This document shows, in pieces, positions 13,589 through 59,397 of a DNA stretch of 64,000 bases. A program made the translations under genes and the position numbers. Under the pieces are notes generated by a model. That model was not told the DNA's origin and ran no database searches. It saw only the letters and a list, made by a program, of their open reading frames with translations. Position 1 is the first letter of the stretch; each line of letters begins with the position of its first letter. The DNA is taken from assembly GCA_028707125.1 (NCBI GenBank), contig JAQTUX010000001.1:269639-333638 (forward strand), given 5' to 3'. Source of the DNA: Candidatus Omnitrophota bacterium (GTDB lineage Bacteria; Omnitrophota; Gorgyraeia; Gygaellales; JAQTUX01).

Positions 13589-13593
13589 AAGAT

Positions 13594-27498: not shown

Positions 27499-28494
27499 TT
27501 GATTATGCGCGCCGCTTACGATAGACCGCGTTTTTGCGACCTCGTCGTCACGGAGAACTGCATGTTGAGATGCCGGATGTGCAGGATGTGGCAGAGCAGG
27601 GCCGGAGGCGATGAGCTGCCCGTCGACGCATGGAAAGGGTTTATCGATTCCTTCGCGGATTTCGCGGGCGGCAATGCCCAGGTGCAGTTTGTCGGGGGAG
27701 AGCCGCTGCTTAAAAACGGGATAACAGGCCTTATCAGCCATGCCCGCAGCAGGGGGCTGGCAACCACCATGACCACCAATGCCTATCTTTTAGACGGGAA
27801 GGCATCCGGTGATATCGCGCTTTCAGGGTTGGGCACGCTGGTCCTGTCGCTGGACAGCCTGAAGGCGCAGGTCCACGATTTTCTGCGGGGACAGGCAGGC
27901 GTCTACGCGAGGGTAATGGCGGCACTGGATTTCTTCAGCAGGCACAAGGATGATCGCCCCCGCCTGCATATAGTCACCACCATAATGCAGCCGGATTTAG
28001 ACGGTGTCCTGGAGCTTGCCGAATGGGCAGAGGCCAACAGGGCGATAGACGCCATAAGTTTTCAGGCGGTGATGCAGCCATTTTTCATGCCGCCGGATGA
28101 TGCCTGGCATGAGAGAGAAGAGTTTGCCTTATTATGGCCGAAGGATGCGGAAAAAATTGACGAGGTCATGGACGGGCTTATACGCCGTAAACGTTCCGGT
28201 TTTAAGATAACCAACCCCGCGGCGCAGTTTGAGGTTTTCCGGTCTTATTTCAAAGACCCCCGGAGATTTGTGAAGGCCTCAAGATGCAATCTGGGGTATG
28301 ACTCGCTGACGGTGAATACGGCAGGCGGCATATTCCTGTGTAATTCAATGGAGCCCATAGGGAATATACGCGACGGGGCGGATATCGCGGAGTTATGGCA
28401 TTCAGAGAAGGCCGAACTCGTAAGGAAGCAGATCGGCGACTGCCGCCGCAACTGCAAGCTTATGATCAACTGTTTTTTTGACGATGAAGGATAA
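27499..28494 (+). CDS. SPASM/twitch-type radical-SAM paralog P10 (TTG start at 27499, or ATG at 27505)
   Basis: FCDLVVTENCMLRCRMCRMW, VGGEPL, SLDSLKAQVHDFLRG, RCNLGYDSLTVNTAGGIFLC, PIGNIR, CRRNCKLMINCFFDDE. Confidence 0.85.
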   Translation: MIMRAAYDRPRFCDLVVTENCMLRCRMCRMWQSRAGGDELPVDAWKGFIDSFADFAGGNAQVQFVGGEPLLKNGITGLISHARSRGLATTMTTNAYLLDGKASGDIALSGLGTLVLSLDSLKAQVHDFLRGQAGVYARVMAALDFFSRHKDDRPRLHIVTTIMQPDLDGVLELAEWAEANRAIDAISFQAVMQPFFMPPDDAWHEREEFALLWPKDAEKIDEVMDGLIRRKRSGFKITNPAAQFEVFRSYFKDPRRFVKASRCNLGYDSLTVNTAGGIFLCNSMEPIGNIRDGADIAELWHSEKAELVRKQIGDCRRNCKLMINCFFDDEG

Positions 28495-30640
28495 TACCGA
28501 CGAATTCCAGCTGCACAAATTGATCCAGGCCCATCTTCAGGCCGGGGAATACGGCCCGGCCAGGGAGGCCTGCCGCCGGCTCTTGAAGATCAGGCCCTCA
28601 AGCATAGCCGCGCACCAGGAACTGGGCAACATACATCTTGAGGAAGGCGATCCTGCCGGGTCAATAAAATATTTCCGGAAGTCCCTGCGGCTGTGCGCGC
28701 GGCAGGGCGGCGGGGACGGGCCGTTAAATGTTTATATAAGGGAATCATATATCAATATGGGCCGGGCATATCTATCGATGAAAAAGTACGGCCGGGCGGT
28801 CAAGATGTTGAAGAAGGCGCTTGAATTAGCGCCGCGGGAGGAGAGGATATACAGATTCCTCGCCTCGGCATACCTTGAGGCGAAAGATTATGATGCGGCG
28901 GTAGATACCGCAGCCGGCCGTTTCAAATCCGCGGGAAAGATCAAGGCCTGCCAGGCGCAGGCCCGGATAAAGATGCTGCGCATCCCCAATTTTTACGGGC
29001 CCGATATCTTTTCCACGGAGATGAATTCCATTATGCTGCCGCCTCTGGCGCTGGGGAATATTGTCTCTTATGTCAGATCACGGGGGATCCCTATGGACCA
29101 GGACGATCTGCATATAAAAATACATCACGATAATTATTTCGGCGGCGGAGAGGAAAAGATAGACGAAGAGGTCTTCTTTGACGCCTCCAGGGTGGCCGGA
29201 TACGCCGGGGGAAACAGCGATCCGCTGATAGAAGGGATCATGGAAAGGGTATGCCGCAAAACCGGCATTGAAGGATACAGGATAATCCTTTTTTCTTTAG
29301 ACAGCTGTTCCATGAACGACAGCCATGCCTTGTTCGCCGTCTGCCTGGCAAGGTATCTAAAGAAGGTCTATGGCCCGATAATAATTTTAGGCGGGCTGAA
29401 TTATTTCCTGGACTTAACGCGCAAGATCGGCTGCCCGCGTTCGGACATAGATCATATAATAGGCAATGAAGGGGAGGAGGTTGTGGCAGAGTTGCTGGCT
29501 TCCTTATTGGATAACAAGGCATATTCAGGCACGGGCAGACAGGAGGGCGAGGGGGCCATTTATTCCCTGAAGGTCCCCGCTCCGGTAATGCCGGATTTTG
29601 AGGGGCTGCCCATTGACAAGTACCGCTATCGCGGCCTAAGGAGCGATTATTGCCCGGACGATGCGTTGAGCCGGGAAATAAAAGAATTCAACGATTCCCG
29701 GACATTGCTTCTGCCTTTCAGGTTCATAAAGGGCTGCACCAATAAATGTATATTTTGCGCCAGCTCCGCCGGCGGGCTGATCCATGTGGCGCCGCCCGCG
29801 GTCGCGGCCGAATGGCTCAAGCAGCTTCAGGAAAGATACGACCCGACAGGGTACCTTTTTCTTAACGATACTTTAAATATCTCCAAGAAATACGTTGACC
29901 GGTTTTGCGAAGAGGTGATAAAAAGAAAGATCGGGGCCCGCTGGTCTGATTGCGCGCGGGTGGACCGGCTGGATAAAGAATCCATATACAAAATGGCTGA
30001 AGCAGGATGCGTGCGGCTGGTATTCGGGATGGAGACCGCCAGCAGGCGGCTGCTGAAATATATCAATAAAGAAATAGACCTGGCCCAGCTGGAAAAGGCG
30101 CTTTACTGGGCTGACAAGGCCGGCATCTGGACAGGGGTGGAGATAATCAGCGGCCTGCCTTATGAGAAGGAAAGAGATGTCGAAGAGACGATCTCTTTCC
30201 TAAAACGCAACAGAGAGCATATTGACGCCTTTTACTATAACGCCTTTAATATAAAGGACACCTCCGCCATACGAGCGCACCCTGAAAAATACGGCATAAC
30301 CAATATATTTGAGCTATCCAGTTACGAAGAAGGGTTTTCCACATTTGTCAAATACGGCTTTGATGAAACGGGCGGACTGAAGTGGCCGGAGAAGAGGAGG
30401 CAGGTGGTCTCCAGTTTTAATAAGGTCATAGATGCCTTGGGGAGGCCTCCTTTTCCGGAACACGAATATGAAAGTTTTCTATTTTTCCTCTATTCCAAGT
30501 ACGCCGACAAGAGGGCCATAAGGGACATCTTTTATTCTGTAGGCAGGCACAAGAACGCATGCCTTGAGCTTTTCAGGAAGGCGAAGAGGAACGATCGGCA
30601 GCCCGGGCAAGCAGCCGAGAGGACACTGGTTTATGGTTGA
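28478..30640 (+). CDS. TPR + B12-binding-like domain + radical-SAM protein (class B-like, subfamily member 1 of 3)
   Basis: N-terminal TPR-like helices (aa ~10-150), then LPPLALGNIVSYVRSRGIPMDQDDL, IIILGG...IIGNEGEEVVAELL, FIKGCTNKCIFCASS, VFGMETAS. Paralogous to 34348..36402 and 36383..37993. Confidence 0.8.
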   Translation: MTMKDNTDEFQLHKLIQAHLQAGEYGPAREACRRLLKIRPSSIAAHQELGNIHLEEGDPAGSIKYFRKSLRLCARQGGGDGPLNVYIRESYINMGRAYLSMKKYGRAVKMLKKALELAPREERIYRFLASAYLEAKDYDAAVDTAAGRFKSAGKIKACQAQARIKMLRIPNFYGPDIFSTEMNSIMLPPLALGNIVSYVRSRGIPMDQDDLHIKIHHDNYFGGGEEKIDEEVFFDASRVAGYAGGNSDPLIEGIMERVCRKTGIEGYRIILFSLDSCSMNDSHALFAVCLARYLKKVYGPIIILGGLNYFLDLTRKIGCPRSDIDHIIGNEGEEVVAELLASLLDNKAYSGTGRQEGEGAIYSLKVPAPVMPDFEGLPIDKYRYRGLRSDYCPDDALSREIKEFNDSRTLLLPFRFIKGCTNKCIFCASSAGGLIHVAPPAVAAEWLKQLQERYDPTGYLFLNDTLNISKKYVDRFCEEVIKRKIGARWSDCARVDRLDKESIYKMAEAGCVRLVFGMETASRRLLKYINKEIDLAQLEKALYWADKAGIWTGVEIISGLPYEKERDVEETISFLKRNREHIDAFYYNAFNIKDTSAIRAHPEKYGITNIFELSSYEEGFSTFVKYGFDETGGLKWPEKRRQVVSSFNKVIDALGRPPFPEHEYESFLFFLYSKYADKRAIRDIFYSVGRHKNACLELFRKAKRNDRQPGQAAERTLVYG

Positions 30641-32054
30641 CGGCAATAACGAGACAGGGATCCTTCTGGTGCAGTCCCCGCCCTGGGGCGTTTATGCCCC
30701 GCCGCTGGGGATCGCCTACCTTTCCGCTTTTCTTAGGTCCGGCAGGCCGGGCGCGATGATATACGACTTGAATATGGAGATATTCCGCGGCTGTCCCGAA
30801 CGGATCAGGGCAAAATGGGATACGGGAGATTTTGAGTTCTGGGCATCCGGAAAGGCGGCGCAGGAGTTACGGGGGTCATTGGACGGGCTGGCGGAGGGGA
30901 TAATTTCTTACGGCGCCTCCGTGATCGGGTTTTCCGCAACTTTTGCCTCCGCGCCGTTTCTGAACGCGTTTATCCCCATGCTCAGGAAAAAGTCGGACAG
31001 GAAGTTGACGATCATAGTCGGCGGCGGCGGCGCCAGCTATGCCCAGACACGGTCGTTATTTACCGACGGCACGATCGATTATTTTGTGATCGGAGAAGGA
31101 GAGCGCGTTTTATCCGATTTGTTGGCTGAGATACGCGGGGGCGGCTTTAACAGCGCTCCGGCGGGTTGCATAAGCTGGAAGGATGTATCCGGCAGCCACG
31201 CCGTCTGTATAGCGGCGGACAAAAACAATACCGATATCAACACAATACCGTTTCCTACCTTTGAGGAATTTGACTTGAGTTATTACACTCAGGACGACCT
31301 TATCCCGCTCATAACCAGCCGCGGCTGCATACGTAATTGTATCTTCTGCTGCGATTCACCGCTGAAGAGGCCTTATCGCTGCCGCCGGCCGCGGGCGGTA
31401 GCGGATGAGATGGCTTATCATGTGAAGCGATACAAAAGAAAAAGATTTGAATTCAGCGACCTGTTGATAAACGGAGACCTGGGCTTCCTGGATGAGCTCT
31501 GCGACTGCCTGATCGCCATGGATATGGGAGTCGCCTGGGGCGGCCAGGCGACCATCAGAAGAGATATGGGCCGCGGCTTGTTGGGTAAAATGAAGGCAGC
31601 CGGCTGCGGAGGGTTGACATTCGGTGTTGAAAGTTGCTCCGACAGGGTGCTGGAGCTGATAGGCAAGGGCGTCAGCGCCGCGGACATCCGCAGGGGCCTG
31701 GCGCGGGCAAAGGATTCCGGCATGCAGGTAGAGATAAACCTTATCGTCGGCTTTCCCGGGGAGGCAGAGGAAGATATTGATGAGACGATAGATTTCATAA
31801 GGAAGAACGCGCCGTCCATTGATAAGATAAACAGCCTGAATATCTGCACCATAGGCCCCGGCACGCATATTTATGAGCATCTTCAGGACTATAATATAGA
31901 TAAGGATATGATAACGGACTGGTATGCCTGGTTCACCAGGGATATGTCCAATACGCTTGAGGTGAGGATGGCAAGGCACCGCCGGATATTATCGCTTTGT
32001 TCGGAATTGAACCTCGCGCCCGCCTGGCAGAATGTGAAAAAGAGCGATGTTTAA
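30633..32054 (+). CDS. B12-binding-domain radical-SAM protein
   Basis: The ATG at 30633 (MVDGNNETGILLVQSPPWGVYAPPLGIAYL) overlaps the upstream stop by 8 nt and is preferred to the track start at 30564. VIGFSATF...IIVGGGGASY...FVIGEGERVLSDLL, TSRGCIRNCIFCCDS, TFGVESCS. Confidence 0.85.
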   Translation: MVDGNNETGILLVQSPPWGVYAPPLGIAYLSAFLRSGRPGAMIYDLNMEIFRGCPERIRAKWDTGDFEFWASGKAAQELRGSLDGLAEGIISYGASVIGFSATFASAPFLNAFIPMLRKKSDRKLTIIVGGGGASYAQTRSLFTDGTIDYFVIGEGERVLSDLLAEIRGGGFNSAPAGCISWKDVSGSHAVCIAADKNNTDINTIPFPTFEEFDLSYYTQDDLIPLITSRGCIRNCIFCCDSPLKRPYRCRRPRAVADEMAYHVKRYKRKRFEFSDLLINGDLGFLDELCDCLIAMDMGVAWGGQATIRRDMGRGLLGKMKAAGCGGLTFGVESCSDRVLELIGKGVSAADIRRGLARAKDSGMQVEINLIVGFPGEAEEDIDETIDFIRKNAPSIDKINSLNICTIGPGTHIYEHLQDYNIDKDMITDWYAWFTRDMSNTLEVRMARHRRILSLCSELNLAPAWQNVKKSDV

Positions 32055-33357
32055 AAAGGCGCTTTCTTTTATATTTATCACGCTCTCTACCATCTTTTTA
32101 TTAGAGGCAGGCCTTAGATCCGGCGGATACCTTGTTCTGAAGTTTAACCCGCCCTCGCAAAGCGGCCGCCTGAAACAAGGGGGAGAAACAGTCATTCTTT
32201 GTTTGGGGGATTCTTTTACCTTCGGAGTAGGCGCCGCCTATCAGGATAGCTATCCGCGGCAGCTGGAAGGCATGCTTAAGGAGAGGTTCCCCCGGAAGTC
32301 CATCAAGGTTTATAATCTGGGTATCCCCGGGAGTAATTCCTCGCAGCTTGAGAGCGGGCTTCAACGGGATATCGATAAATACCATCCGGACCTGGTAATA
32401 GTCATGTCCGGACGCAATGATATCTGGAATATGGCCGGAGCCGGCAGGCCGGTTTTTTTACTGAGCGGATCGCGTTTATATAAATTGATAAAGGCCGCGC
32501 AGGCAAATATAGCGGCCAAGATGAGAAAGATTGAGGAAAATGAACGCGCCTTAGCGCCGAGAAAGGCGCCGCCGGAGGCAAGCCGGTTGATTACGCAGGG
32601 CCATGACTTGAAGGAGCAAGGAAGGTATGATCTGGCGAAGGAGTGTTTTCTTGAGGCGCTGCGTATCGACCCGGGCAATCCCGACGCCAACCGGCAACTG
32701 GGCACTATTTATAGAGAGGGGGCGGAATACGAGCTGGCTGAGAAGTGTTTGACTGAAGCGGTGAGGCAGGGTTATGGCGGGGATGGGAATATCTATGTGG
32801 AATTGGGTATGGTCCACAGGATACAGAACAGGCCCGGGTTGGTCCGGGAGGAGTTAAGGCGGGCATTGGTGGACCCGCGCGCGGCAGCGCTTGCCTTTAT
32901 TGAATTTCAGCAGACCTGTGCCGACAGCAGCGAGTTTTATAAAGAGATGGAGGCCTTCAGCGCGGGGCTTAAGGACAGGGGGAGTCGCAGGATGATCAAG
33001 GCCATGATAGCATTGCACAGGGACAAAGAGGCGATAGCGGCAATAATGCGCGATAACTTCCTGAAGATATATAAGGCCTGCAGGGATAACGGTGTCGGGC
33101 TGATATTGCAGACATATCCGGAAACGGAGAACGTAGCGGAAGGTGTAAGGCATATAGCCGATAGATACGATATCCCCACGGTGGACAACCATCTGGTATT
33201 TGAGAAAGAATTGAATGGCCGCGATAGAAGGGAGTTTTTTGTAAGCGATGACCATTGCAATGCCGAGGGGTACCGGCTTATCGCGGAGGGCGTATACGAG
33301 GCCATGATCAGGGAAGGGATGATTGATGATACCGTCGCCATCGCCGCAAAAAATTAA
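32047..33357 (+). CDS. Membrane-anchored SGNH-TPR paralog 2
   Basis: Anchor ALSFIFITLSTIFLLEAGL. VILCLGDSFTFGVGA, LGIPGSNSS, LVIVMSGRNDIWN, FVSDDHCNAEGYRLIA. The TPR-like insert contains ...YDLAKECFLEALRIDPGNPDANRQLGTIY.... Confidence 0.7.
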   Translation: MFKKALSFIFITLSTIFLLEAGLRSGGYLVLKFNPPSQSGRLKQGGETVILCLGDSFTFGVGAAYQDSYPRQLEGMLKERFPRKSIKVYNLGIPGSNSSQLESGLQRDIDKYHPDLVIVMSGRNDIWNMAGAGRPVFLLSGSRLYKLIKAAQANIAAKMRKIEENERALAPRKAPPEASRLITQGHDLKEQGRYDLAKECFLEALRIDPGNPDANRQLGTIYREGAEYELAEKCLTEAVRQGYGGDGNIYVELGMVHRIQNRPGLVREELRRALVDPRAAALAFIEFQQTCADSSEFYKEMEAFSAGLKDRGSRRMIKAMIALHRDKEAIAAIMRDNFLKIYKACRDNGVGLILQTYPETENVAEGVRHIADRYDIPTVDNHLVFEKELNGRDRREFFVSDDHCNAEGYRLIAEGVYEAMIREGMIDDTVAIAAKN

Positions 33358-34357
33358 CGAGCCAAAGAGTTGCGTCATACTGCTCACTCTTGGATGCGTT
33401 CTAAGATGCAGGATGTGCCATCTCTGGAAGAACGACGAGGCAGGGATAAAAAAGCCCGGCCTGCAGGACTGGAAGGATTTTATTTCTTCCATAAACAGGC
33501 CGCGGGATCCCGAATTTACGGTCATATTCGGCGGAGGAGAGCCGATGCTGTTTCCCGATACCCTGATAGAGTTGATCCGCTTCTGCCGCGCAAGAGGATT
33601 CAGGACCTCTCTGGCGACAAGCGGATATTTCATAGATGAAGCAATGGCTAAACGCCTGGCAGATTCAGGGTTAAACTATATAGCCCTTACTTTATACAGT
33701 TTAAATGAAAAGACCCATAATTTTTTGCGCGGTATGCCCGACAGCTATGACAAGCTCATACGGGCGATCGGCTATCTTGCCGGACAGCGCGCCTCTCTCG
33801 AAACAGCCATAGACACCGTGATCATGGCGCCTAATCTGGGAGAGGTCTTAGAATTGGCGGATTGGGTAAAGGGCGACGGAAGGATATCTTCCGTTTTCTT
33901 CCAGTCGGTTGTGCAGCCGTTCCATACGCCGGCGCTGGAAGAGTGGTATAAGTCAGGGGAATACGGATTCTTATGGCCAAAGGACGCCGCTCAGGTGGAT
34001 TCCGTCATTGACGGATTGATAGAAAGGAAGGAGCGCCTGGGGGAGGGAAGGGGCAGGATCAATAATCCCGTTTCGCAGCTTAAACTTTTCAAGGCCTATT
34101 TCAGGGACCCGCGCAAGTTTATAAAACGTTACTCCTGCAACGTTATTAATGACAGCGCCTTTACCGTGTCTCCCGACGGAGGAGTGAATCTTTGCCCGTA
34201 TATGAAGCCCATCGGCAATATACGCGGCGGCTCCCTGCGCGATATCTGGCATTCGCAGGAGGCGCTGGCCAGGCGGGATGATATAGCGCGGTGTAAAAAG
34301 AACTGCCACCACATAATCAATTGCTGGTATGAGGAAGAAAAGGCGGTATGTGCTTAG
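33323..34357 (+). CDS. SPASM/twitch-type radical-SAM paralog P11
   Basis: SCVILLTLGCVLRCRMCHLW, GGGEPM, TLYSLNEKTHNFLRG, SCNVINDSAFTVSPDGGVNLC, PIGNIR, CKKNCHHIINCWYEEE. Confidence 0.85.
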   Translation: MMIPSPSPQKINEPKSCVILLTLGCVLRCRMCHLWKNDEAGIKKPGLQDWKDFISSINRPRDPEFTVIFGGGEPMLFPDTLIELIRFCRARGFRTSLATSGYFIDEAMAKRLADSGLNYIALTLYSLNEKTHNFLRGMPDSYDKLIRAIGYLAGQRASLETAIDTVIMAPNLGEVLELADWVKGDGRISSVFFQSVVQPFHTPALEEWYKSGEYGFLWPKDAAQVDSVIDGLIERKERLGEGRGRINNPVSQLKLFKAYFRDPRKFIKRYSCNVINDSAFTVSPDGGVNLCPYMKPIGNIRGGSLRDIWHSQEALARRDDIARCKKNCHHIINCWYEEEKAVCA

Positions 34358-36402
34358 ATAGTGAAAACGGCCATATAATATCCGGCAACCGGTATCTGGA
34401 CAGAAAGAAATACAGCCGGGCGCTGGAAGAATTCAATAAGGCGCTGGATGCTGACCCGCGCAACGAATACGCCTATCAGGGGCTGGGGCATCTATATCTG
34501 CAGCAGGGAAAATATGAGCAGGCATTAGAGGCATTCCGGAAGGGGCTGCGGATCAACAGCCGGAATCAGTATATACATCAGGGTTTAGGGTATATATACC
34601 TGGAACAGGGCTCATATGATGCTGCAGAGCGGGAGTTTGAGGTGACCCTGCGGCTGGGCGGAGATAATATGTTCGCCCGTAGGATGCTGGGATATATCTA
34701 TAAGAGAAAGGGAAAGGACGAGGCGGCGGCGTCGGAATTCATAAAGGCGACGGAATTATATCTGGGAAGAGAGGAAAATAATAAAAGGCCGGCTTCGGGA
34801 GACGGCCGCCGGGATTGGAAGGTCAAGCTGTTAAGGATGCCCGGCTTTCCCGACGAAAATGATATCGGCGGCAGGCAGCTGAATTACTGCCTGCTACCGC
34901 CTCTGGCGCTGGGCTGCCTTACCGGTTTTCTGAGGCAGAACGGGTTTGATATCGATCAGGATGACCTGAACATAAAGATCCATTACGATAATAAATATTG
35001 CGATGACGCCGGAGATAAGGTAGATATCTCCGTTTTTTACGATGAGGGCAGGATACTGAGGTGGCTGCGGGAAGGAGGAGACGGGTATTTAGATTCGGTT
35101 ATGGAGGCAGTCGGGCGCAAGACAGGGTTGAGCGGATACCCGGTCGTCTTATTGTCGCTGCCCGCGTTTTTCAATAATTCCGGCTGTCTTATGTTCACCC
35201 TGGCGCTGGCAAGATTCCTCAAGAATAGACACAATCCCGTCCTGGTTTTAGGGGGAGCCAATCAATCGGTTGAATTGTTGAGCAAGTATGACAGGCGTGA
35301 CATAGATTTTGTGATCTACGGTGACGGAGAGGTGGCGCTGCTTGAACTACTTGGGGCCATAAGACAGGATGCCGACCCCGGGGAGTGCCTGTATTCCTGC
35401 GTTAAAGAAGAGGGCAGGTTTATGGCAACAGAGGTCCATCCTCCGCTTAAGCCGGATTTTTCCGGACTGCCCATGGACAAATACAGGCATGAGGGGACGC
35501 TGCTTCTTTTGTTTAAGTTTATCAAGGGATGCGCCCATGAATGCGTTTTCTGCCCTGAATCCACAAACAGACTGGTTTATGTTTTGAAGCCGGAGAAGGC
35601 AGCCGGTTATTTAAAAGAGCTTCAGGAAAAATACAACCCCACAGGATTTTTCTTCTTAAGCGATACCATAAATATCTCCAGGGGTTTCCTTAATGAGTTT
35701 TGTGATGAGATAATCGGCAGCGGAACGGACATACTCTGGACCGACAGCGCGCGCGCGGACAACCTGGACAGGGATACGCTTTTTAAGATGCGCCGCGCCG
35801 GATGCATACGCCTGGTCTTCGGCATGGAGACGGCCAGCCCGGGATTGTTGAGGTATGTGGACAAGCGCATCAGTTTAAGGCGGCTGGAAGATGTATTGAG
35901 ATGGGCTGATGAGGCCGGGATATGGACGGGGGTGGAGATAATCTGCGGCCTGCCGCACGAGAAAGAAAGAGATGTTGACGAGACGGTATCCTTTTTGAAC
36001 AGGAACAAGGAGTTTATAAACAGCGCGTATTTTAATCAATTCGGCCTCAGGGACGGCAGCGTGCTTATGCGCAGCCCGGAAAGGTTCGGGATTGAAAATA
36101 TAAAAGAGATATGCCAATACGCGGACGGGGAATTTACCTATTTTCATAAATACGGATACGACGAGACAGGCGGCCTTCAATGGCAGGAAAAGAAGAGGCA
36201 GATCATTGCCGCGCATAAAAAGCTCATTAATAATACCTGCTGGCAGAGCGCCTTTCCCATCTATGAGTTTGAGCATGTTTTGTTTTCGCTTTATTCCAGG
36301 TTCGCTGATAAAAAGGCGGTTTCCGGCATATTCAATGAGATGCTGAAAGAGAGGAATTATCAGAGGCAACAATCTACAGACCATGCCAAAGCGCGGTATT
36401 AA
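34348..36402 (+). CDS. TPR + B12-binding-like + radical-SAM protein (subfamily member 2 of 3)
   Basis: TPR repeats (YSRALEEFNKALDADPRNEYAYQGLGHLYLQQGKYEQALEAFRKGLRIN...), LPPLALGCLTGFLRQNGFDIDQDDL, FIKGCAHECVFCPES, VFGMETAS. Confidence 0.8.
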   Translation: MCLDSENGHIISGNRYLDRKKYSRALEEFNKALDADPRNEYAYQGLGHLYLQQGKYEQALEAFRKGLRINSRNQYIHQGLGYIYLEQGSYDAAEREFEVTLRLGGDNMFARRMLGYIYKRKGKDEAAASEFIKATELYLGREENNKRPASGDGRRDWKVKLLRMPGFPDENDIGGRQLNYCLLPPLALGCLTGFLRQNGFDIDQDDLNIKIHYDNKYCDDAGDKVDISVFYDEGRILRWLREGGDGYLDSVMEAVGRKTGLSGYPVVLLSLPAFFNNSGCLMFTLALARFLKNRHNPVLVLGGANQSVELLSKYDRRDIDFVIYGDGEVALLELLGAIRQDADPGECLYSCVKEEGRFMATEVHPPLKPDFSGLPMDKYRHEGTLLLLFKFIKGCAHECVFCPESTNRLVYVLKPEKAAGYLKELQEKYNPTGFFFLSDTINISRGFLNEFCDEIIGSGTDILWTDSARADNLDRDTLFKMRRAGCIRLVFGMETASPGLLRYVDKRISLRRLEDVLRWADEAGIWTGVEIICGLPHEKERDVDETVSFLNRNKEFINSAYFNQFGLRDGSVLMRSPERFGIENIKEICQYADGEFTYFHKYGYDETGGLQWQEKKRQIIAAHKKLINNTCWQSAFPIYEFEHVLFSLYSRFADKKAVSGIFNEMLKERNYQRQQSTDHAKARY

Positions 36403-37993
36403 AGTCATAAGATTGCCCGGTTTTTTCAAGAAGCGGCAATTCTCTTCAGGGCCGAATTGCTGCCTGATACCTCCTTTGGGACTGGGGCTTATCAGCGCGC
36501 ACCTTCGCTCCAAAGATATGCCGGTAGAGCAGGCGGATCTCAATATTGAGATCCATCACAATAATTACTATTCCGATTCAGCCGCGGACAAGATTGATAC
36601 CGAGGTATTTTTTGACCTGCCGCGCGTAGAGAGATACGCGCTTGGCGGCAGCGATCAATATATAGATTCTATTATGGACAGGGCAGCCGGTAAGGCCGGG
36701 GTGGGCCAGGGGCAGTTTATGCTTCTTTCTCTGCCGGACAATATCGAGAATGAAACAAACCTTTCTTTCGCGCTGGCCTTTACGCGTTTTATCAAAGACC
36801 GATACGGCACCATAAACATATTGGGCGGGCAGGGGCCGTGGCTGGGCCATATGCGTTCCCGGTATGGCTGCCGAAATATAGATCATATCCTGCGCGGCGA
36901 CGGCGAATACCTTCTTGACCGGATTTTTGACGCGCCGGAAGCGGGCCCCGCGTTCTCCGGCGGGCCGTATCTGTCGGTTGAAGACGGCGGCAAGGTGATA
37001 ACTTCAAATAAGATATGCAGGCCGATCAAACCCGATTTCTCCGGCCTGCCCATGGACAAATACAGGTCCAGGCAGGAGGTGCTGGAGCATCCGCGGGAGC
37101 TTGGGGGTTTAATGGATGAATTCCAGAAAAATGGGGCGTTGCTTTTGCCGTACAGGTTTATCAGGGGATGCCCCTTTGAGTGCATCTTTTGTGTTTCCTC
37201 AACCCAGAGTTTAAGCCACGCGCTTTCTCCGGCGGAGATCGCCGGGCACCTGGAGTCCATGCAGGAACAATACCGGCCGGACGGGTTCTTCTTTTTGAAC
37301 GATACCATAAATATATCCAGGAAGTTCATAAATGAATTGTGCGATGAGATATTAAACCGCGGGCTTAAGGTCTTGTGGAGCGACTGCGCCAGGGCGGACA
37401 ACCTGGACAGGGACACGCTTTTTAAGATGCGCCGCGCCGGATGCATACGCCTGATCTTCGGGATGGAGACGGCCAGCCCCCGTTTGCTGAAGTACATAAA
37501 TAAACGGGTGGACCTGGCGCAGCTGGAGAACGTCCTGCGCTGGTCTGATGAGGCCGGCATCTGGACCGGGGTTGAGGTGATCTGCGGTTTCCCCCACGAG
37601 CGGGAGGAAGACATACGGGCCACGATCTCGTTCCTGAATAAAAATGAGGAATATATCAACCGCGTGTACCTGAATCATTTTGACCTGAGGCAGGGCAGCA
37701 TGCTTTACGATTCTCCCCGGAAATACGGCCTGAAGCGGGTCATTGAAGTCAATCAATGCACGCAGAGGGATTTCAGCAGTTATGTTCAGTTTGGCTTTGA
37801 CGAAGACGGGGGGCTGGCCTGGGAAGAAAAAGAGAGGCAGATGGAGCGTTCCCTGGGAATGGTCCGGGACAGCTGCGCGCGGGGCTCGAGGTTTTTTACA
37901 GACGAGCATCTTTTATTTTTTCTTTATTCCAGGTTCAGCGATAAGGAGAGGATAAGATCCATTTATCTCAAGATCCTCAAACAGGAGGGGTGA
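36383..37993 (+). CDS. B12-binding-like + radical-SAM protein (subfamily member 3 of 3, lacks the TPR head)
   Basis: IPPLGLGLISAHLRSKDMPVEQADL, FIRGCPFECIFCVSS, IFGMETAS. The 86-nt patch 37394-37479 differs at only 3 positions from 35755-35840 in the preceding gene. Confidence 0.8.
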   Translation: MPKRGIKVIRLPGFFKKRQFSSGPNCCLIPPLGLGLISAHLRSKDMPVEQADLNIEIHHNNYYSDSAADKIDTEVFFDLPRVERYALGGSDQYIDSIMDRAAGKAGVGQGQFMLLSLPDNIENETNLSFALAFTRFIKDRYGTINILGGQGPWLGHMRSRYGCRNIDHILRGDGEYLLDRIFDAPEAGPAFSGGPYLSVEDGGKVITSNKICRPIKPDFSGLPMDKYRSRQEVLEHPRELGGLMDEFQKNGALLLPYRFIRGCPFECIFCVSSTQSLSHALSPAEIAGHLESMQEQYRPDGFFFLNDTINISRKFINELCDEILNRGLKVLWSDCARADNLDRDTLFKMRRAGCIRLIFGMETASPRLLKYINKRVDLAQLENVLRWSDEAGIWTGVEVICGFPHEREEDIRATISFLNKNEEYINRVYLNHFDLRQGSMLYDSPRKYGLKRVIEVNQCTQRDFSSYVQFGFDEDGGLAWEEKERQMERSLGMVRDSCARGSRFFTDEHLLFFLYSRFSDKERIRSIYLKILKQEG

Positions 37994-38991
37994 TGGCCGC
38001 TGGCAATCCCCGTTTTTGCGATATCGTGGTCTCCAACCGGTGCCTGCTCAGGTGCAGGATGTGCAAGTCCTGGCAGTGCGGGCCTCAATCAAACGAGATT
38101 ACTCTTTCGGAGGCAAAGCGGTTCGTAGAGGGGCTTTCCGAATTTGTCAAGGAGCCCCTGGAAATAAACGTGATGGGCGGAGAGCCGTTATGGAAGGATT
38201 GGTGCCTGGACCTCTGCGCCTTTATTTCCAAAAAGGGCTTCAGGTCCATAATTTCCACAAATGCCTACCTTATAGACGAAGATATGGCAAGGCGCATAGC
38301 GGATTCGGGGTTGAACGTGCTGGCGATCTCGCTGGAAAGCCTGAATCCGGCGACGCATAATTTCTTAAGGGGCAGGGAAGATGTATTCTCCAGGGTGATG
38401 AAGGGCATAGAGAACATCCGCAGGTTCTGCGGCCCGGACCTGACAGTCACCATCCTCACCATAATAATGGAGAGGAATTTAAGCGAGATAATCGAGCTGA
38501 CGGAATGGGTGAACAGCGACAGGTTGTTCCAGAACATCTCTTTTCTGGCACTGCTGGAAACAGGCCTGGTAGAGGACAGGAATGGATGGTTCAGAAGCCC
38601 GGTGTACAAGGAGCTTTGGCCGCAGGACACGGAGAAGCTTTACCGCCTCATAGATGAATTAAAGGAGAAAAGAACGCGGGGTTACAAGATCTGGAATCCG
38701 CTTTCGCAGCTGGACGCGTTCAAAGATTATTATACCGAGCCGGAGCGGTTTATGAGAGAGACGCAATACCGCGTTCATGATTATATAATAGATTTAGATG
38801 AGAACGGCATTATCTACCTTAGCGGAGAGGCCCTGGGCAACATCAGGGATGATAATGTGCGGGGACTCTGGTTTTCAGATAAGGCGCAGGCGATCAGGGA
38901 GAAGATCGATGCGCGCGGCCCGGGGAAGAGGTGCTGCGTTATTAACTTTGTCTGCGCCTTCCCGCAGGACAGTGAATATGCCAAACGATAA
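37990..38991 (+). CDS. Radical-SAM paralog P12, with divergent C-terminal Cys motifs
   Basis: FCDIVVSNRCLLRCRMCKSW and MGGEPL are intact. The C-x11/12-G-x4-C pair is replaced (YRVHDYIIDLDENGIIYLS) and the CxxxCxxxxxC tail is replaced by GKRCCVINFVC. Confidence 0.8.
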   Translation: MMAAGNPRFCDIVVSNRCLLRCRMCKSWQCGPQSNEITLSEAKRFVEGLSEFVKEPLEINVMGGEPLWKDWCLDLCAFISKKGFRSIISTNAYLIDEDMARRIADSGLNVLAISLESLNPATHNFLRGREDVFSRVMKGIENIRRFCGPDLTVTILTIIMERNLSEIIELTEWVNSDRLFQNISFLALLETGLVEDRNGWFRSPVYKELWPQDTEKLYRLIDELKEKRTRGYKIWNPLSQLDAFKDYYTEPERFMRETQYRVHDYIIDLDENGIIYLSGEALGNIRDDNVRGLWFSDKAQAIREKIDARGPGKRCCVINFVCAFPQDSEYAKR

Positions 38992-39961
38992 ATCCCATAT
39001 GATTGGAAGGCCGAAATTCTGCGTTATAGAGGTATCGCATAGATGCATGTTCCGCTGCAAGATGTGCAACTACGGAGTATCCGCGCCCGAGCCGGAGGTC
39101 AGCGTCGGAGAACTGATAGGATACGTATCGTCATTCAAGGATTTTGTGAACACGCCTTTTGAGATAAACATCTCCGGCGGAGAGCCGCTTTTAAAAGAGG
39201 GCGCGCTGGAATTGCTGGGGTTCATCAGCGGCCTGGGATTTAACAGCTCCATGGCCACCAACGCCTATTTGATCAACAGGGAAAACGCCAGGCGCCTGGC
39301 GGATTCAGGGGTGGGGGTTGTCCCCATATCCTTGGACAGTTTAGATGGGCGCGTCCACGACTACCTTAGAGGAAAGGATGGGGCGCATAAGAACGCCATG
39401 GATGCCTTAAATTATTTTATGGAATACAGGGGCAGATTGAGGGGGGTGGTTATCCAGTCGATCATCATGGAGCCGACGCTGGATGGGCTGGTGGAGCTTG
39501 CCGGATGGGCCGATCAAAGGGACATCTCGGTATCATTTATGGCGGTAATGCGGCCGAATATGGTCCCTGTTGATTTAAGATGGCATGAAAGAGAGGAGTT
39601 CAGCTTTCTCTGGCCGAAGGATACCGCTAAAGCGCATTCCGTCATTGATAAGCTGATAGAAATGAAACAGTCGGGCTGCCGCGTAGATACGCCTGTCGGC
39701 CAGTTGAGGCGTTTTAAGTCGTATTTCGCCGATCCGCTTCAGTTCGTAAGAAAGGCCAGCTGCGGCCTGGGCGAGGATATCGTCCATATAAATAACAAGG
39801 GCGACATTTACCTTTGCTGCGAGATGGAACCGATCGGTAACGTAAAAGACGCCGATATACGCTATACCTGGTTTTCGCCGAAAGCCGCGCGGGTCAGGCG
39901 GGAGATAAAAAAATGCCGGAGAAATTGCGCGGAGATGATAAACTGCTATCGGGAGGAGTGA
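38978..39961 (+). CDS. SPASM/twitch-type radical-SAM paralog P13
   Basis: The ATG at 38978 (MPNDKSHMIGRPKFCVIEVSHRCMFRCKMCNYG) is preferred to the track start at 38798, whose Arg-rich extension overlaps P12. SGGEPL, SLDSLDGRVHDYLRG, SCGLGEDIVHINNKGDIYLC, PIGNVK, CRRNCAEMINCYREE. Confidence 0.8.
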   Translation: MPNDKSHMIGRPKFCVIEVSHRCMFRCKMCNYGVSAPEPEVSVGELIGYVSSFKDFVNTPFEINISGGEPLLKEGALELLGFISGLGFNSSMATNAYLINRENARRLADSGVGVVPISLDSLDGRVHDYLRGKDGAHKNAMDALNYFMEYRGRLRGVVIQSIIMEPTLDGLVELAGWADQRDISVSFMAVMRPNMVPVDLRWHEREEFSFLWPKDTAKAHSVIDKLIEMKQSGCRVDTPVGQLRRFKSYFADPLQFVRKASCGLGEDIVHINNKGDIYLCCEMEPIGNVKDADIRYTWFSPKAARVRREIKKCRRNCAEMINCYREE

Positions 39962-39965
39962 CGGC

Positions 39966-41636
39966 GTGAAGGCGGGGAAAATAAGCATTTTTTATAAAGA
40001 GCTAAGAAGCGCCTGCCCCAGGAATATAAAGGGGGTTTTCCGCAACCCGGGAAAGCTGCTGCGGTATGCCAGGGCATTTTTTAATTATGATATGGGGGCC
40101 GACGATAAGAACATGCGGCCTATGGATACGGCCAACGCATGCTGTTTATTCGGGGACTTTGAAGAGCTGCACGACAGGATCGCTGGCAGAGAAGGCGGCT
40201 ACAAAGATAAGATATCGAGCATCGGGTCCGCCTTGAGCCGGAAACAACCAGTGAAGATAAGCGTGGGGATATCGCGTTATAACTTCGGGCGGCTGCATAA
40301 GGTCTGCGAGCATGGAATGGCGCTTTTGGGAGAGAAGGCGGATCTATCAGGGATCGGTCTTGAGGTCTTTCCCGTCAAGGACCTGCCGCAGAATTTCATC
40401 GCTTATATTGAGGCATTGAAGCAGCGCCTTGACCCGCAAAAAATAGAACTCGTTGTCCACGACAATGAGTTGATGGATATCCTCAAGACCGTGGGGCTGC
40501 ACGCGCGGGTAAACGACGAGCGGGAGAAGGACCTCCTGCGGCTTCTGGGGGTCATAAGCGAACAGGTATTTATCGGGCCGCAGACGATCGTCTTTGATCC
40601 CTATCACAGGTGCAATACCAGATGTAAACATTGCTGGGTGCATACGCCCGGGGTCAGCCATCCCGAGGAGTTCCTTGACCGCAAATTTGATTTTGAGATA
40701 TTCAAGCGGATTATAGACGATGCTTCGGAGATGAAGGTGGACGGCATCATCCTGCAGGGTGACGGCGAACCGCTGATATACGACAAGTTCATGCCCATGC
40801 TCAGATACGCCAAGTCCAGGGACCTGGGTGTCCTGTTTTTTACCAACGGCATCCTCCTTGATAAGGAAAAATCAAAAGAGGTGATAGACCTGGGGGTCAA
40901 TGAGATATACTGCAGCTTTCCCGCCGGGACAGCCGTTACCTACGAAAAGATATCCTCTGTGCAGCCGGCGGAAACATTTTATAAGGTCCGGGATAACCTC
41001 AAGAGCTTTATGTCGTTAAGAAGGGGGATGAATAAACCGCATCCGCGGCTTATCATCAGCCACGTAATACATAATATGAATTATCATGAATTGACGGAGA
41101 TGGCCGGGATGGACGCCGATATAGCGCCCGACGCGGTCAGGTTCTACCTTATAAGGCTGGACGTGATGAACAGGTTCCTCCAGCTTGAGCCCCGTCAGAT
41201 AGAGGAGATAAAAAGGCAGGTGCCGGAGATCTCCAGGATCTTGAAAGAAAAGAACATAGAGTTCGTGGATAATTTCGGTTTCCAGCTGAACAATTATGAT
41301 GAAAAGACCGGCGCCTGGTCCAAGGATTTCTTCCTGAGGCACGGCTGCAATATCGGCTGGTATTTCAACCTTATACCGGCGAGATACGATATGAGCTTCT
41401 GCTGCCACCTGCGGACCGTGGGATACGTTGACAGGCAGTCATTCAAGGATATCTGGAACTCGGTGGATTACTGGCGCTGGAGAAGGCAGGCGAAATATTT
41501 AAAAGACAATAAATACGCGAAATTCGCCAACGGGCAGGTTCTTTATGACGAACATTGCGACCATTGCGATAATCACCAGACGATAATAAGGAATTTACGG
41601 GAGATCAGGAAGTATGGTCTGGATAAATACTATTAA
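39966..41636 (+). CDS. Radical-SAM/SPASM-like protein, 'CxxxCxxCW' subfamily; paralog of aa ~590-1057 of the 10415..13588 protein (GTG start)
   Basis: GISRYNFGRLHKV...EKDLLRLLGVISEQVFIGPQTIVFDPYHRCNTRCKHCWVHTP aligns with GISRFNFFKIHEV...ERDLLRLLGLIAEHPFIGPQTLVLDTTHKCNTNCAHCWIHNP. GDGEPLIY, and the C-terminal CNIGW...MSFCCHLR...CDHCDNHQ. Confidence 0.85.
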   Translation: MKAGKISIFYKELRSACPRNIKGVFRNPGKLLRYARAFFNYDMGADDKNMRPMDTANACCLFGDFEELHDRIAGREGGYKDKISSIGSALSRKQPVKISVGISRYNFGRLHKVCEHGMALLGEKADLSGIGLEVFPVKDLPQNFIAYIEALKQRLDPQKIELVVHDNELMDILKTVGLHARVNDEREKDLLRLLGVISEQVFIGPQTIVFDPYHRCNTRCKHCWVHTPGVSHPEEFLDRKFDFEIFKRIIDDASEMKVDGIILQGDGEPLIYDKFMPMLRYAKSRDLGVLFFTNGILLDKEKSKEVIDLGVNEIYCSFPAGTAVTYEKISSVQPAETFYKVRDNLKSFMSLRRGMNKPHPRLIISHVIHNMNYHELTEMAGMDADIAPDAVRFYLIRLDVMNRFLQLEPRQIEEIKRQVPEISRILKEKNIEFVDNFGFQLNNYDEKTGAWSKDFFLRHGCNIGWYFNLIPARYDMSFCCHLRTVGYVDRQSFKDIWNSVDYWRWRRQAKYLKDNKYAKFANGQVLYDEHCDHCDNHQTIIRNLREIRKYGLDKYY

Positions 41637-42825
41637 TTCAATGCGCCGATCTAAGGAAAGAGCCGCCTCAATAGCCTTCGGCATAGTGTTGTTTTTTCTG
41701 CTCCTTGAGCTTGGCATGCGCGCGGGAGCGGCCCTGCTGGCGTATTCGCAGGAACACAGGAACATAGTTTCCTTAAGGCAGAAACATACCTGCCGCATCG
41801 TCTGCCTTGGAGAGTCCACGACAGCCGGAGGGATGTATTCTTATCCGGCGCGGCTGGAAGAAGTCCTGAACAACGCCGGCATAGGCAGGGAATTCAGCGT
41901 GATAAATAAGGGCGTAGTTGGGATAGATACATCGGGAATACTGGCTGGTTTAGACGGCGTCCTTGATAAATATGAGCCGGATATAGTGATCGCGATGATG
42001 GGGGCAAACGATGAGCGGCCGCACCTGCTCTTTCATGTTGATTCCGGTTCGACGATAGTGGATCTTCTCGCCGGCTTAAAGACCGTTAAGCTGGCAAGAA
42101 TGCTTTGGTTTAATATCAATAGCAGGATCAGGCCGCCGCGGGCCATAAGGTCCGCCACGGAAAACAGCACGGTATATTTTGACCTGGGCCAGTTTTACAG
42201 GGACCGCAGGGAATATGTGAAGGCGGAGGAGATGTTCAGGGCCGCCGCGCAGGAGAATACGGCTGATTACAGGCCCTATTTTGAGCTGGGCTGCCTCTAT
42301 AAGAAAAGAGGGGATTTTTCCGGAGCGGCGGGGATGTTCAAGAGGGCGATAGAATTGGAGCCGGACAATGACAGGGCCTACAGAGGCATCCTGGCCATAT
42401 ATAATGAATTATCCCTTTATGGAGACGGAAAGGAATACCTTGCCTTGCTGTTGGAAATGAAAAAGAGGCACTATCGACCTTCGGCTATCATTACTCTGAC
42501 GCCCAATAACTACCGTAAATTGAAGGAGGCCCTGGAGAAGAGAGGGATACTGTTGGTCTGCGCGCAATACCCGATGCGCAGCATCGAGCCGCTGGAGGAG
42601 ATATTCGGCTCCGGGGAGGGCGTGATCCTTGTTGATAATGAAAAGATATTTAAGGACGCGGTCCGATCGGGAGGTTATGACAGGTATTTTACCGATACCT
42701 TTGGCGGTGACTTCGGGCACTGCACGGCAGAGGGTAACCTGCTTCTGGCGAAGAACATAGCTGATGTGATCATGGCCAGGGTGTTTGATAAAAATGGCCG
42801 GCTCGCTTATCGCAAAACCCATTGA
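41614..42825 (+). CDS. Membrane-anchored SGNH-TPR paralog 3 (GES nucleophile variant)
   Basis: Anchor IAFGIVLFFLLLELGM. RIVCLGESTTAGG, IVIAMMGANDE, GGDFGHCTAEGNLLLA. TPR-like insert (YVKAEEMFRAAAQENTADYRPYFELGCLYKKRGDFSGAAGMFKRAIELEPDN). Confidence 0.65.
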   Translation: MVWINTINSMRRSKERAASIAFGIVLFFLLLELGMRAGAALLAYSQEHRNIVSLRQKHTCRIVCLGESTTAGGMYSYPARLEEVLNNAGIGREFSVINKGVVGIDTSGILAGLDGVLDKYEPDIVIAMMGANDERPHLLFHVDSGSTIVDLLAGLKTVKLARMLWFNINSRIRPPRAIRSATENSTVYFDLGQFYRDRREYVKAEEMFRAAAQENTADYRPYFELGCLYKKRGDFSGAAGMFKRAIELEPDNDRAYRGILAIYNELSLYGDGKEYLALLLEMKKRHYRPSAIITLTPNNYRKLKEALEKRGILLVCAQYPMRSIEPLEEIFGSGEGVILVDNEKIFKDAVRSGGYDRYFTDTFGGDFGHCTAEGNLLLAKNIADVIMARVFDKNGRLAYRKTH

Positions 42826-42874
42826 CAGGGACAGCGGCCGCTATAGAATAAAATATACGTAGCAGAAAGGAAGG

Positions 42875-44177: not shown

Positions 44178-44179
44178 CA

Positions 44180-46561: not shown

Positions 46562-46567
46562 GTCGAT

Positions 46568-49492: not shown

Positions 49493-49494
49493 CG

Positions 49495-50121: not shown

Positions 50122-50134
50122 TAATCAACACATT

Positions 50135-53067: not shown

Positions 53068-53085
53068 GGGCCCGACAGGACTAAC

Positions 53086-54105: not shown

Positions 54106-54153
54106 AAGTCCTTATGCTTCAGTTATCCGTAACCGGCAGCGTTGTTTGATTAA

Positions 54154-58497: not shown

Positions 58498-58515
58498 AAC
58501 AAAGGGAACATCCGG

Positions 58516-59382: not shown

Positions 59383-59397
59383 TTTAAGGGTGGGGTT

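Follow-up and report, generated by a model that had tools for sequence, protein, structure and literature searches.

Gene content and setting of the array

The window, that is, the whole stretch of 64,000 nt that was analysed, belongs to a Candidatus Omnitrophota genome and carries one co-directional gene array with about 25 uncharacterised radical SAM genes, which domain calls place in a surface-glycan locus of the Wzm/Wzt type. All genes described here lie on the forward strand. A Wzm-like ABC-2 permease and a Wzt-like ATPase that is extended by 650 aa at its C-terminus (6933-10421) are followed by the upstream part of the array, X1057, M760, X439, P1, P2, S1 and P3-P10 (10415-28494), all of which encode radical SAM proteins except S1. 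Downstream, the glycan-assembly part (42984-62890) contains two GT1 and two GT2 enzymes, Wzy_C-TPR, Bac_transf, DUF362 and a methyltransferase, together with PMT_2, Peptidase_U32, an SGNH-TPR gene (S4) and four further radical SAM genes. An ABC-2 permease/ATPase pair, an initiating transferase and glycosyltransferases are present in one locus, as is typical of a Wzm/Wzt export locus. Like O-antigen and capsule loci of this type, it combines adjoining permease and ATPase genes with a Bac_transf initiating transferase, GT1 and GT2 enzymes and a Wzy_C ligase-like protein; unlike them, it also houses about 25 radical SAM genes, and its Wzt extension has domains in common with two radical SAM enzymes. 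No description of so many radical SAM genes in a Wzm/Wzt-type glycan locus was found in the literature searched. Overall, the array families comprise thirteen BlsE-like radical SAM-SPASM paralogs (P), three class-B-like paralogs (A, B and C), HpnJ-like and other radical SAM proteins, SGNH-TPR hydrolases and a U32 protein; none of the radical SAM proteins that were scanned against NCBIfam reached a curated cutoff.

The central segment (28478-42825) opens with gene A (28478-30640), which encodes a TPR protein with a class-B-like radical SAM domain (720 aa) and forms its own orthogroup with the marker VDRLDKDSIYKM. It is followed by M496 (30564-32054), a radical SAM protein with a B12-binding domain and orthologs of 53-64% identity at 15 loci; S2 (32047-33357), a fast-evolving SGNH/GDSL hydrolase with TPR whose best ortholog is 42% identical; and P11 (33323-34357), a radical SAM-SPASM paralog of 344 aa. 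Gene B (34348-36402; MDD4909338.1, 684 aa) again combines TPR with a class-B-like radical SAM domain and belongs to the B1 orthogroup (marker LWTDSAR), while gene C (36383-37993; MDD4909339.1, 536 aa) is class-B-like without TPR and has about 30 orthologs with 55-73% identity. The segment ends with the radical SAM paralog P12 (37990-38991), with orthologs up to 75%; the radical SAM-SPASM paralog P13 (38798-39961), whose true start is probably near 38999; X556 (39966-41636), a radical SAM-SPASM protein with an N-terminal extension, paralogous to the C-terminal half of the protein encoded at 10415 (43%) and with orthologs up to 68%; and S3 (41614-42825), a further SGNH/GDSL hydrolase with TPR. 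Domain searches agreed with the first-pass annotation on TPR plus radical SAM for A and B, radical SAM for C, B12-binding plus radical SAM for M496, SGNH-TPR for S2 and S3, and radical SAM-SPASM for P11, P13 and X556. The SPASM assignment of P12 did not hold: no SPASM domain was detectable in this protein, and its cysteine set is degenerate, several of the auxiliary-cluster (SPASM/twitch) cysteines present in P11, P13, X556 and P1 being missing.

Genes A, B and C form one subfamily, as had been proposed, with 42-48% amino acid and 54-58% nucleotide identity among them and only about 27% amino acid identity to other B12-type radical SAM proteins, M496 included. The N-terminal motif attributed to all three is found in A and B, whereas C has IPPLGLG...EQADLNIEIHHNN instead. 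Pfam Radical_SAM was recognized in A, B and C, and the class B features, a CX3CX2C cluster motif and the barrel, are present; in C, C267 and C270 of this motif are invariant and C263 is at least 90% conserved. The predicted model of C (pLDDT 90.6) pairs a Rossmann-like domain at the N-terminus with a radical SAM barrel and resembles MgmA, TsrM, OxsB and AprD4 from end to end, although C is just 14-15% identical to these enzymes and AprD4 is the only solved relative detected by sequence search. AprD4 itself has been reported not to use cobalamin. A search at E ≤ 0.01 did not find the Pfam B12-binding domain (PF02310) in A, B or C, although it is listed for some of their homologs. The subfamily differs from these class B enzymes in the N-terminal TPR fusions of A and B and in that no NCBIfam model reaches its cutoff for any of the three. 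The fold of P11 is nearest to BlsE (TM 0.70/0.74, same size) despite about 18% identity, and P11 shares with small radical SAM-SPASM enzymes of the BlsE/DesII/anSME type the lack of an RRE peptide-recognition domain; however, thirteen distinct paralogs stand here in fixed order, one of them (P12) having lost SPASM cysteines, compared with one or two such enzymes in known pathways.

Gene order and age of the array

The segment had been described as two cassettes with a repeating gene order. The longest common subsequence of the two is only two genes under strict family labels and three under the labels of the first-pass annotation, and in permutations such a match is expected by chance (P=0.88 and 0.44, respectively, at fixed position; about 1 anywhere in the array). 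DNA self-comparison of the window revealed no multi-gene diagonals. In addition, supposed counterparts are not each other's closest paralogs: within the window, S2 pairs with S1 (19163), S3 with S4 (59398) and not with S2, both P11 and P13 with P10 (44.5% in the case of P13), and C lies much nearer to A and B than to M496. The sole sister groups are A and B, while P11, P12, P13, S2, S3 and the M496/C pair have their closest relatives elsewhere. Chance-level collinearity together with these mismatched paralogs rules out recent segmental duplication and leaves no ground for a cassette-like segmental organisation.

An older event, in which a block of two class B radical SAM genes, an SGNH-TPR gene and a P gene was duplicated and later scrambled, would explain why the same families recur, why the sister orthogroups A and B both carry TPR, and why the DNA-level offsets from A to B (5795) and from P11 to P13 (5637) are similar. 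This scenario is nevertheless improbable, since P11 is no closer to P12 and P13 (34-35%) than to other P paralogs (39%), and the pairings of P13, C, S2 and S3, like the gene order itself, run against it.

Comparison with other genomes gives a different picture of the recurring families. Other genomes show the order P..P-A-M496-S-P11-(B/C)-P12-P13-X556-GT1 again, position by position (loci L004, L014, L016/L036, L009, L007, L010 and L038), with variation in the B/C slot, which holds B only, C only, B-C or C-B. Every radical SAM gene tested between 13516 and 41636 has a best ortholog of 45-78% identity (52-78% without P8) versus 27-46% for its best paralog in the window, and the nearest orthologs are found in other Omnitrophota, often at the same position. 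Because separate orthologs of each paralog occur elsewhere in conserved order, the apparent cassettes are best read as recurrences of old families. The suggestion of an actively evolving array is likewise not borne out: A, B and C each represent an old orthogroup in many Omnitrophota, the gene order is conserved, and there is a single patch of homogenisation (see below), so that active expansion or homogenisation is rejected. On these comparisons, the array is ancient and syntenic, with an order kept across the phylum.

A near-identical patch shared by genes B and C

Positions 35755-35840 in B, with the codons for ADNLDRDTLFKMRRAGCIRLVFGMETASP, and 37394-37479 in C (residues 338-366) are identical at 83 of 86 nt, exactly as first noticed. 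Inside this patch is an exact run of 39 nt, longer than any other exact repeat in the window apart from those of the repeat gene at 129-6179. Identity between the two genes amounts to 58% (nucleotide) and 48% (amino acid) as a whole, and to about 70% in the flanks of the patch. Among 779 cross-orthogroup pairs, the pair of the window ranks first with 83/87 nt (next 72/87, mean 60, sd 4.7), about five standard deviations beyond the other 778. The equivalent segments of co-resident B/C pairs in other genomes share 62-70 of 87 nt, and when the best 87-nt segment was taken from each of 25 co-resident paralog pairs, the B/C pair of the window gave 83 and all other pairs 61-73. No further high-identity patches were found in the window or between co-resident paralogs of other loci.

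Since the sequence derives from a metagenome-assembled genome, the two copies might have been homogenised by mis-assembly or by reads cross-mapped during consensus polishing. This is very improbable: B and C are both intact and in frame, each grouping with its own orthologs on either side of the patch; 3-4 differences remain between the copies, a type-specific Val/Ile codon among them; flanks of about 70% identity are too low for read cross-mapping; and a 39-mer collapsed in the de Bruijn graph would rearrange genes rather than edit bases.

In the model of C, the patch corresponds to a single alpha/beta unit within the radical SAM barrel, a helix (343-351) and a strand (354-362) with GMETAS at its end. 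The 28/29 amino acid identity is not peculiar to the B/C pair and is no evidence for conversion, because no other peptide of the family is as conserved as this one, which is near-invariant even in Elusimicrobia homologs that are only about 40% identical overall. Amino acid identity therefore carries no weight in the patch, and the informative sites are only about 26 synonymous ones. At synonymous-comparable codons, B and C are identical at 23/26 in the patch versus 101/211 in the rest of the pair. Genome codon usage predicts 9.6 matches (P=2.7e-8), and the most conservative null, site-specific preference reweighted by genome bias, predicts 12.5 (P=9e-6); the patch stood above chance under every null tried.

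These figures bear on the chief alternative, which dispenses with recombination and invokes extreme purifying selection that keeps a SAM-binding peptide invariant, convergent codons in a GC-rich genome and site-specific synonymous constraint. In its favour, besides the near-invariance of the peptide, the GC3 of the source genome (0.61-0.66) is among the highest of the sampled members, a condition under which convergence in codon choice is greatest; at certain patch sites the codon is conserved throughout the family; the distant homolog L044:7299, from another, unrelated GC-rich genome, shares 14/17 patch codons with C; and the second-best co-resident window overall, A-B with 73/87 nt, comes from the same source genome. 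Codon-bias convergence does account for part of the patch signal. It falls short of the whole, as the conservative null indicates, and gene A, with the same genome and the same bias, shares just 9/16 patch codons with B and 10/15 with C.

Phylogenetic comparison points in the same direction. When quartets were formed with orthologs, the B and C copies of the window paired at 94% of informative sites in the patch, versus 31% elsewhere in the gene; the best quartet gave 8:1:0 in the patch versus 40:190:31 outside (Fisher 1.2e-5), with a median P of 6e-4 over 72 quartets. The same-genome share of informative sites is also raised in the patch of four control genomes (29-59% versus 14-20% in the rest), an observation in favour of the account without recombination. 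Outside the patch, either half of B, and likewise of C, has its nearest relatives among the orthologs of the same gene, so neither gene is a chimera; each protein forms a singleton 90% cluster. The copy in B carries residues typical of C: sites 9-10 of the patch are LF, as in 12 of 14 C-group members and in none of the 12 other B1-type orthologs, and site 6 is R, where 9 of 12 other B1-type orthologs have K. An account without recombination leaves these C-type residues (R, LF, R), mostly or wholly absent from other B1 orthologs, unexplained, and we regard it as unlikely, though the most serious of the alternatives. The copying direction is not clean, because the first patch residue of C is Ala, B-like and unlike the Val/Ile of its nearest C orthologs, which points the other way.

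Course of events and biological meaning

Gene conversion between the neighbours B and C, as initially proposed, is the likeliest origin of the patch, with moderate to strong support from sequence statistics, tree incongruence and donor-type residues; from the sequences compared, the patch is quite probably the trace of a single short conversion from C to B. Identity above background, synonymous excess, incongruence confined to the tract and donor-type residues were all found, as in ectopic conversion between tandem bacterial paralogs (short-tract, RecA/mismatch-repair mediated), which likewise leaves sharp-edged near-identity within saturated paralogs in adjoining, co-directional genes. The present case differs in its single, very short tract (about 60-87 nt) with already 3-4 differences, and in the location of that tract in the most constrained motif, which makes convergence a serious confounder. 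In contrast to classic concerted evolution and antigenic-variation cassettes, no repeated array-wide homogenisation is seen here; the conversion stands alone in an array that is otherwise stable.

Taken as a whole, the locus is likely explained by an ancient paralog array and one short B/C conversion, most likely from C to B. The recurring families are ancient paralogs, each with orthologs in conserved order in other Omnitrophota, and the B/C tract would have been homogenised once, by non-allelic gene conversion on a saturated background. The probable converted core in B, the likely recipient, would span about 60 nt (35755-35814, 59/60 nt identical to C, the likely donor), with apparent identity reaching 86-87 nt. 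Such a tract would cover the most conserved alpha/beta unit of the barrel, including helix, strand and GMETAS motif, where heteroduplex formation may have been easiest and exchange functionally neutral because B and C were already most alike there.

The patch is thus a small, ordinary case of ectopic gene conversion, whose chief value is methodological: near-identity in the most conserved motif of a family has to be assessed from synonymous sites and by comparison with orthologs, since most of the resemblance comes from peptide conservation and codon bias. Rejection of the cassette model weighs more, since it makes the large radical SAM paralog set a stable, ancient and non-redundant pathway rather than a rapidly duplicating array, from which it follows that one product undergoes about 25 separate radical reactions. 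The glycan-locus context of these genes, more interesting than the patch, suggests that the array may serve glycan tailoring. As a tentative view, rather less probable than not, about 25 distinct radical SAM enzymes in fixed order and a Wzm/Wzt assembly and export locus might constitute an undescribed, phylum-conserved "radical tailoring line" that yields, anaerobically, an exceptionally heavily C-modified surface glycoconjugate in Omnitrophota; the conversion patch would then be a by-product of two related enzymes being direct neighbours. Omnitrophota are ultra-small, often host-associated bacteria. If the product is indeed a surface glycan of these organisms, its pathway would rank with the most radical-SAM-intensive ones known and promise a wealth of new enzyme chemistry.

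Gene order and ancestry of the radical SAM array

About 25 radical SAM (rSAM) genes lie within one co-directional surface-glycan locus of the Wzm/Wzt type (window 6933-62890), on a 1.26-Mb contig of a Candidatus Omnitrophota MAG; all window genes are on the + strand and are close-packed or overlapping. The span from 28478 to 42825 begins with A (28478-30640, TPR and radical SAM), followed by M496 (30564-32054, B12-binding and radical SAM), S2 (32047-33357, SGNH hydrolase and TPR), P11 (33323-34357, rSAM-SPASM), B (34348-36402, TPR and radical SAM, NCBI MDD4909338.1), C (36383-37993, radical SAM without TPR, NCBI MDD4909339.1), P12 (37990-38991, radical SAM with undetectable SPASM), P13 (38798-39961, rSAM-SPASM), X556 (39966-41636, rSAM-SPASM) and S3 (41614-42825, SGNH and TPR). 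A, B and C are class-B-like paralogs, P1-P13 paralogs of the rSAM-SPASM type, and the M and X genes other large rSAMs. The 5' side of the span carries a Wzm/Wzt-like ABC-2 transporter pair, three further large rSAMs and P1-P10, and the 3' side carries GT1/GT2 glycosyltransferases, Wzy_C-TPR, Bac_transf, PMT_2, Peptidase_U32, a methyltransferase, DUF362 and four more rSAMs.

The first-pass annotation had read the gene order of this span as two repeating cassettes. The 24 genes of 10415-42825 carry the family labels X M X P P S P P P P P P P P T M S P T T P P X S. On these labels the two proposed cassettes have a longest common subsequence of 2 genes (3 when C is relabelled as in that annotation), and collinearity is at chance level (label permutation, P=0.88 and 0.44 at the cassette position and ~1 anywhere). 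Off-diagonal DNA matches within the span are confined to the conserved cores of A, B and C and to one 56-nt motif shared by P11 and P13. Nor are the cassette counterparts mutual closest relatives: S2 is closest to S1 and S3 to S4, P11 to P10, P6 and P9, P13 to P10, and X556 to the C-terminal half of X1057, while C resembles A and B far more than it does M496. Cassette-like organisation, and with it cassette duplication, is therefore not upheld.

A tree built without the near-identical patch of B and C resolved three orthogroups, A, B (with subgroups B1 and B2) and C, each consisting of the window gene and orthologs from many Omnitrophota. The window gene order recurs gene for gene in related loci such as L004, L016/L036, L014, L009, L007, L010 and L038; in particular, L004 reads P2 P3 P4 P5 P6 P7 P9 P10 M496 P11 C P12 X556 GT1 Wzy-TPR, and L016/L036 reads P5 P6 P7 P9 P10 A M496 P11 C B P12 P13 X556 GT1. 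For the rSAM genes tested in 13516-41636, the best ortholog elsewhere shows 52-78% identity versus 27-46% for the best in-window paralog, with the exception of P8 (25488-26531; 45 and 41%, respectively). Since orthologs are closer than paralogs and gene order is shared, the first-pass description of an actively evolving array is unsupported. Genomes do differ in whether they carry A, P8, P13 and the fast-evolving SGNH-TPR genes, and in the slot between P11 and P12, where B alone, C alone, B-C or C-B is found; at this slot, ancient paralogs are polymorphic both in presence/absence and in order.

The slot variation was seen in L004, L007, L009, L010, L014, L016/L036, L019 and L023. The B subtypes are distinguished by the motifs LWTDSAR...FGMETAS (B1) and LWSDCAR...FGIETAS (B2). 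P8 is the only P paralog without an ortholog of at least 50% identity in the sampled loci (best 45%, L023), and in most related loci P7 is followed directly by P9. Several SPASM/auxiliary-cluster cysteines found in every one of the other 12 P paralogs are missing from P12, and Pfam detected no SPASM domain in it; its orthologs nevertheless rank with the best-conserved P genes (best 75%), and P12 may be a functionally shifted member. An Elusimicrobia genome (GCA_020523885.1; L049, 7151-12604) carries a tandem pair of homologs, each TPR plus class-B-like rSAM, that are 68% identical overall and match at 78/87 nt in the patch; they lie among housekeeping genes, the rSAM array and glycan genes being absent there; the A/B/C family therefore also occurs outside the big locus.

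The near-identical patch of genes B and C

As first annotated, 35755-35840 in B and 37394-37479 in C differ at 3 of 86 nt, and 39 consecutive nt of the patch match exactly, which is longer than any other exact repeat of the window outside the repeat gene 129-6179. Gene-wide, B and C share 48% protein and 58% DNA identity, and their second-best 29-codon window reaches 77%. No stretch of the whole family is better conserved than the encoded peptide, ADNLDRDTLFKMRxAGCIRLxFGMETASP; it is almost unchanged in ~100 homologs, including Elusimicrobia proteins only ~40% identical overall, and for this reason its amino-acid identity is no evidence of conversion. In the confident model of C (pLDDT 90.6) the patch makes up a single alpha/beta unit of the radical SAM barrel, consisting of helix 343-351 and strand 354-362, whose end carries GMETAS. 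It aligns to the AprD4 segment ...AGCVGVEVGVESG..., and the analogy of other radical SAM enzymes makes it a probable SAM-contacting motif. A second B/C exact match, of 21 nt (35467-35487 and 37046-37066), encodes the conserved motif LPMDKYR; constraint and codon bias suffice for it without conversion, because A has most of the same codons.

The synonymous sites are more informative. Among comparable codons, 23/26 are identical between B and C in the patch versus 101/211 elsewhere, where 9.6 matches are expected under window codon usage (P=2.7e-8) and 12.5 under a conservative null combining family-wide, site-specific codon frequencies with the bias of this genome (P=9e-6, or ~5e-4 once corrected for roughly 50 windows and pairs). 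Across 72 family members drawn from 48 related loci, 68 of them distinct in sequence, the B-C pair (83/87) ranked at the top of 779 cross-orthogroup pairs (next 72, mean 60, sd 4.7); co-resident B/C pairs of other genomes scored 62-70 in the equivalent segment, and the best 87-nt window over 25 co-resident paralog pairs was 83 here and 61-73 in all others. In quartets of the window copies of B and C (W-B and W-C) with a B and a C ortholog, 94% of informative patch sites grouped the two window copies versus 31% outside the patch, the best quartet giving 8:1:0 and 40:190:31, respectively (Fisher 1.2e-5). A GENECONV-style permutation on the A/B/C alignment (24/25 polymorphic sites, 0/3000 permutations) was set aside, because the A-group motif is lineage-specific in every genome, which violates site exchangeability. 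The Elusimicrobia tandem pair was dropped as a control, its overall identity of 68% and unrelated context making it not comparable.

Several observations temper confidence in this signal. The GC3 of this genome (0.61-0.66) ranks among the highest in the sample, W-C has 14/17 codons in common with a distant homolog from a different GC-rich genome, and in four control genomes the same-genome signal is also raised in the patch (29-59% versus 14-20%). Family-wide preferred codons occur at several patch sites even in AT-rich genomes (Leu9 = CTT 25/44, Thr8 = ACG 17/33, Ala27 = GCC 35/48, Ser28 = AGC 46/64; counted in patch-homologous segments of 48 related loci, e.g. L014:8619-10202, L006:13861-15444 and L012:67-1659), which hints at synonymous constraint in the motif. 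Convergence therefore contributes, yet falls short of the observed level; paralog A, under the same bias in the same genome, shares only 9/16 patch codons with B and 10/15 with C. A nucleotide-level or RNA element was rejected, as the folds of the window copies do not improve on those of shuffled sequences (z=+1.3 and +0.8) and neither copy has an Rfam match. A chimeric assembly swap at the 39-nt repeat was excluded, the flanking halves of B and of C each being nearest to their own orthologs.

We thus regard gene conversion as the probable origin of the B/C patch, the one part of the first-pass interpretation that stands; it is a one-off event in a stable operon. The W-B patch reads R...TLF...RR, whereas sites 9-10 in all 12 other B1-type orthologs are IL, LL, IF, II, LI, LV or VF, and site 6 is K in 9/12 of them. 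LF occupies sites 9-10 in 12/14 C-group members, and L012, the nearest ortholog of C, also has R at sites 6 and 14. These C-type residues indicate that the W-B patch most likely derived from C. Site 21 remains type-specific in both copies (Val in B, Ile in C), which delimits a core of 35755-35814 (59/60 identical) as probably the converted tract; constraint and bias can account for the FGMETASP identity beyond it. The first residue of the W-C patch, Ala, is B-like, so that the exchange may have been patchy.

Glycan context and possible function of the array

None of the ten rSAM proteins scanned came near the curated cutoff of any NCBIfam model. C has a class-B architecture, with Foldseek matches to MgmA, TsrM, AprD4 and OxsB (TM 0.5-0.65), and P11 is nearest to BlsE (TM 0.70/0.74), then anSME, SkfB, SuiB and DesII. 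RiPP maturases are among the partial NCBIfam matches, which prompted a RiPP reading; we rank it lower, because P11 contains no RRE domain, the exporter belongs to the ABC-2 type rather than to the peptide exporters, the glycan toolkit of the locus is complete, and BlsE, AprD4 and DesII, the nearest relatives by structure or sequence, act on sugars. A lipid is a further candidate substrate. From the same toolkit, exporter and sugar-acting relatives we tentatively propose that many distinct radical reactions might tailor an undecaprenyl-linked or nucleotide-linked glycan before Wzm/Wzt export, and the TPR fusions may serve to arrange these enzymes on a shared partner.

The Wzt-like ATPase (7710-10421) has a 650-aa C-terminal extension, segments of which are 24-27% identical to the N-terminus of X1057 (10415-13588) and the C-terminus of M760 (13516-15798). 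These three regions and two unannotated ORFs had no match in Pfam or PDB sequence searches, and the extension could be a shared substrate-binding module linking the exporter with the tailoring enzymes. Directly 5' of the glycan locus, gene 129-6179 encodes a 2016-aa protein with a C-terminal Peptidase_S74 (endosialidase chaperone) domain and contains internal DNA repeats spaced ~1.1 kb and ~0.9 kb apart, which are 79-88% identical and include exact matches as long as 56 nt; the product resembles a tail-fibre-like surface protein. A promoter/terminator scan was at chance level overall; its top sigma-70-like match in 27-44.5 kb (11/12, 42822-42849) lies between S3 and GT1a, in the only real intergenic gap of that region, and may be an internal promoter.

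No published description of such an rSAM-rich glycan locus was found in the literature searched; one paper on radical SAM suites in Elusimicrobia deals with nitrogenase-paralog neighbourhoods, a different system. As an example of a known process, the B/C patch is unremarkable; what merits follow-up is the radical-SAM-rich glycan operon, conserved across the phylum.
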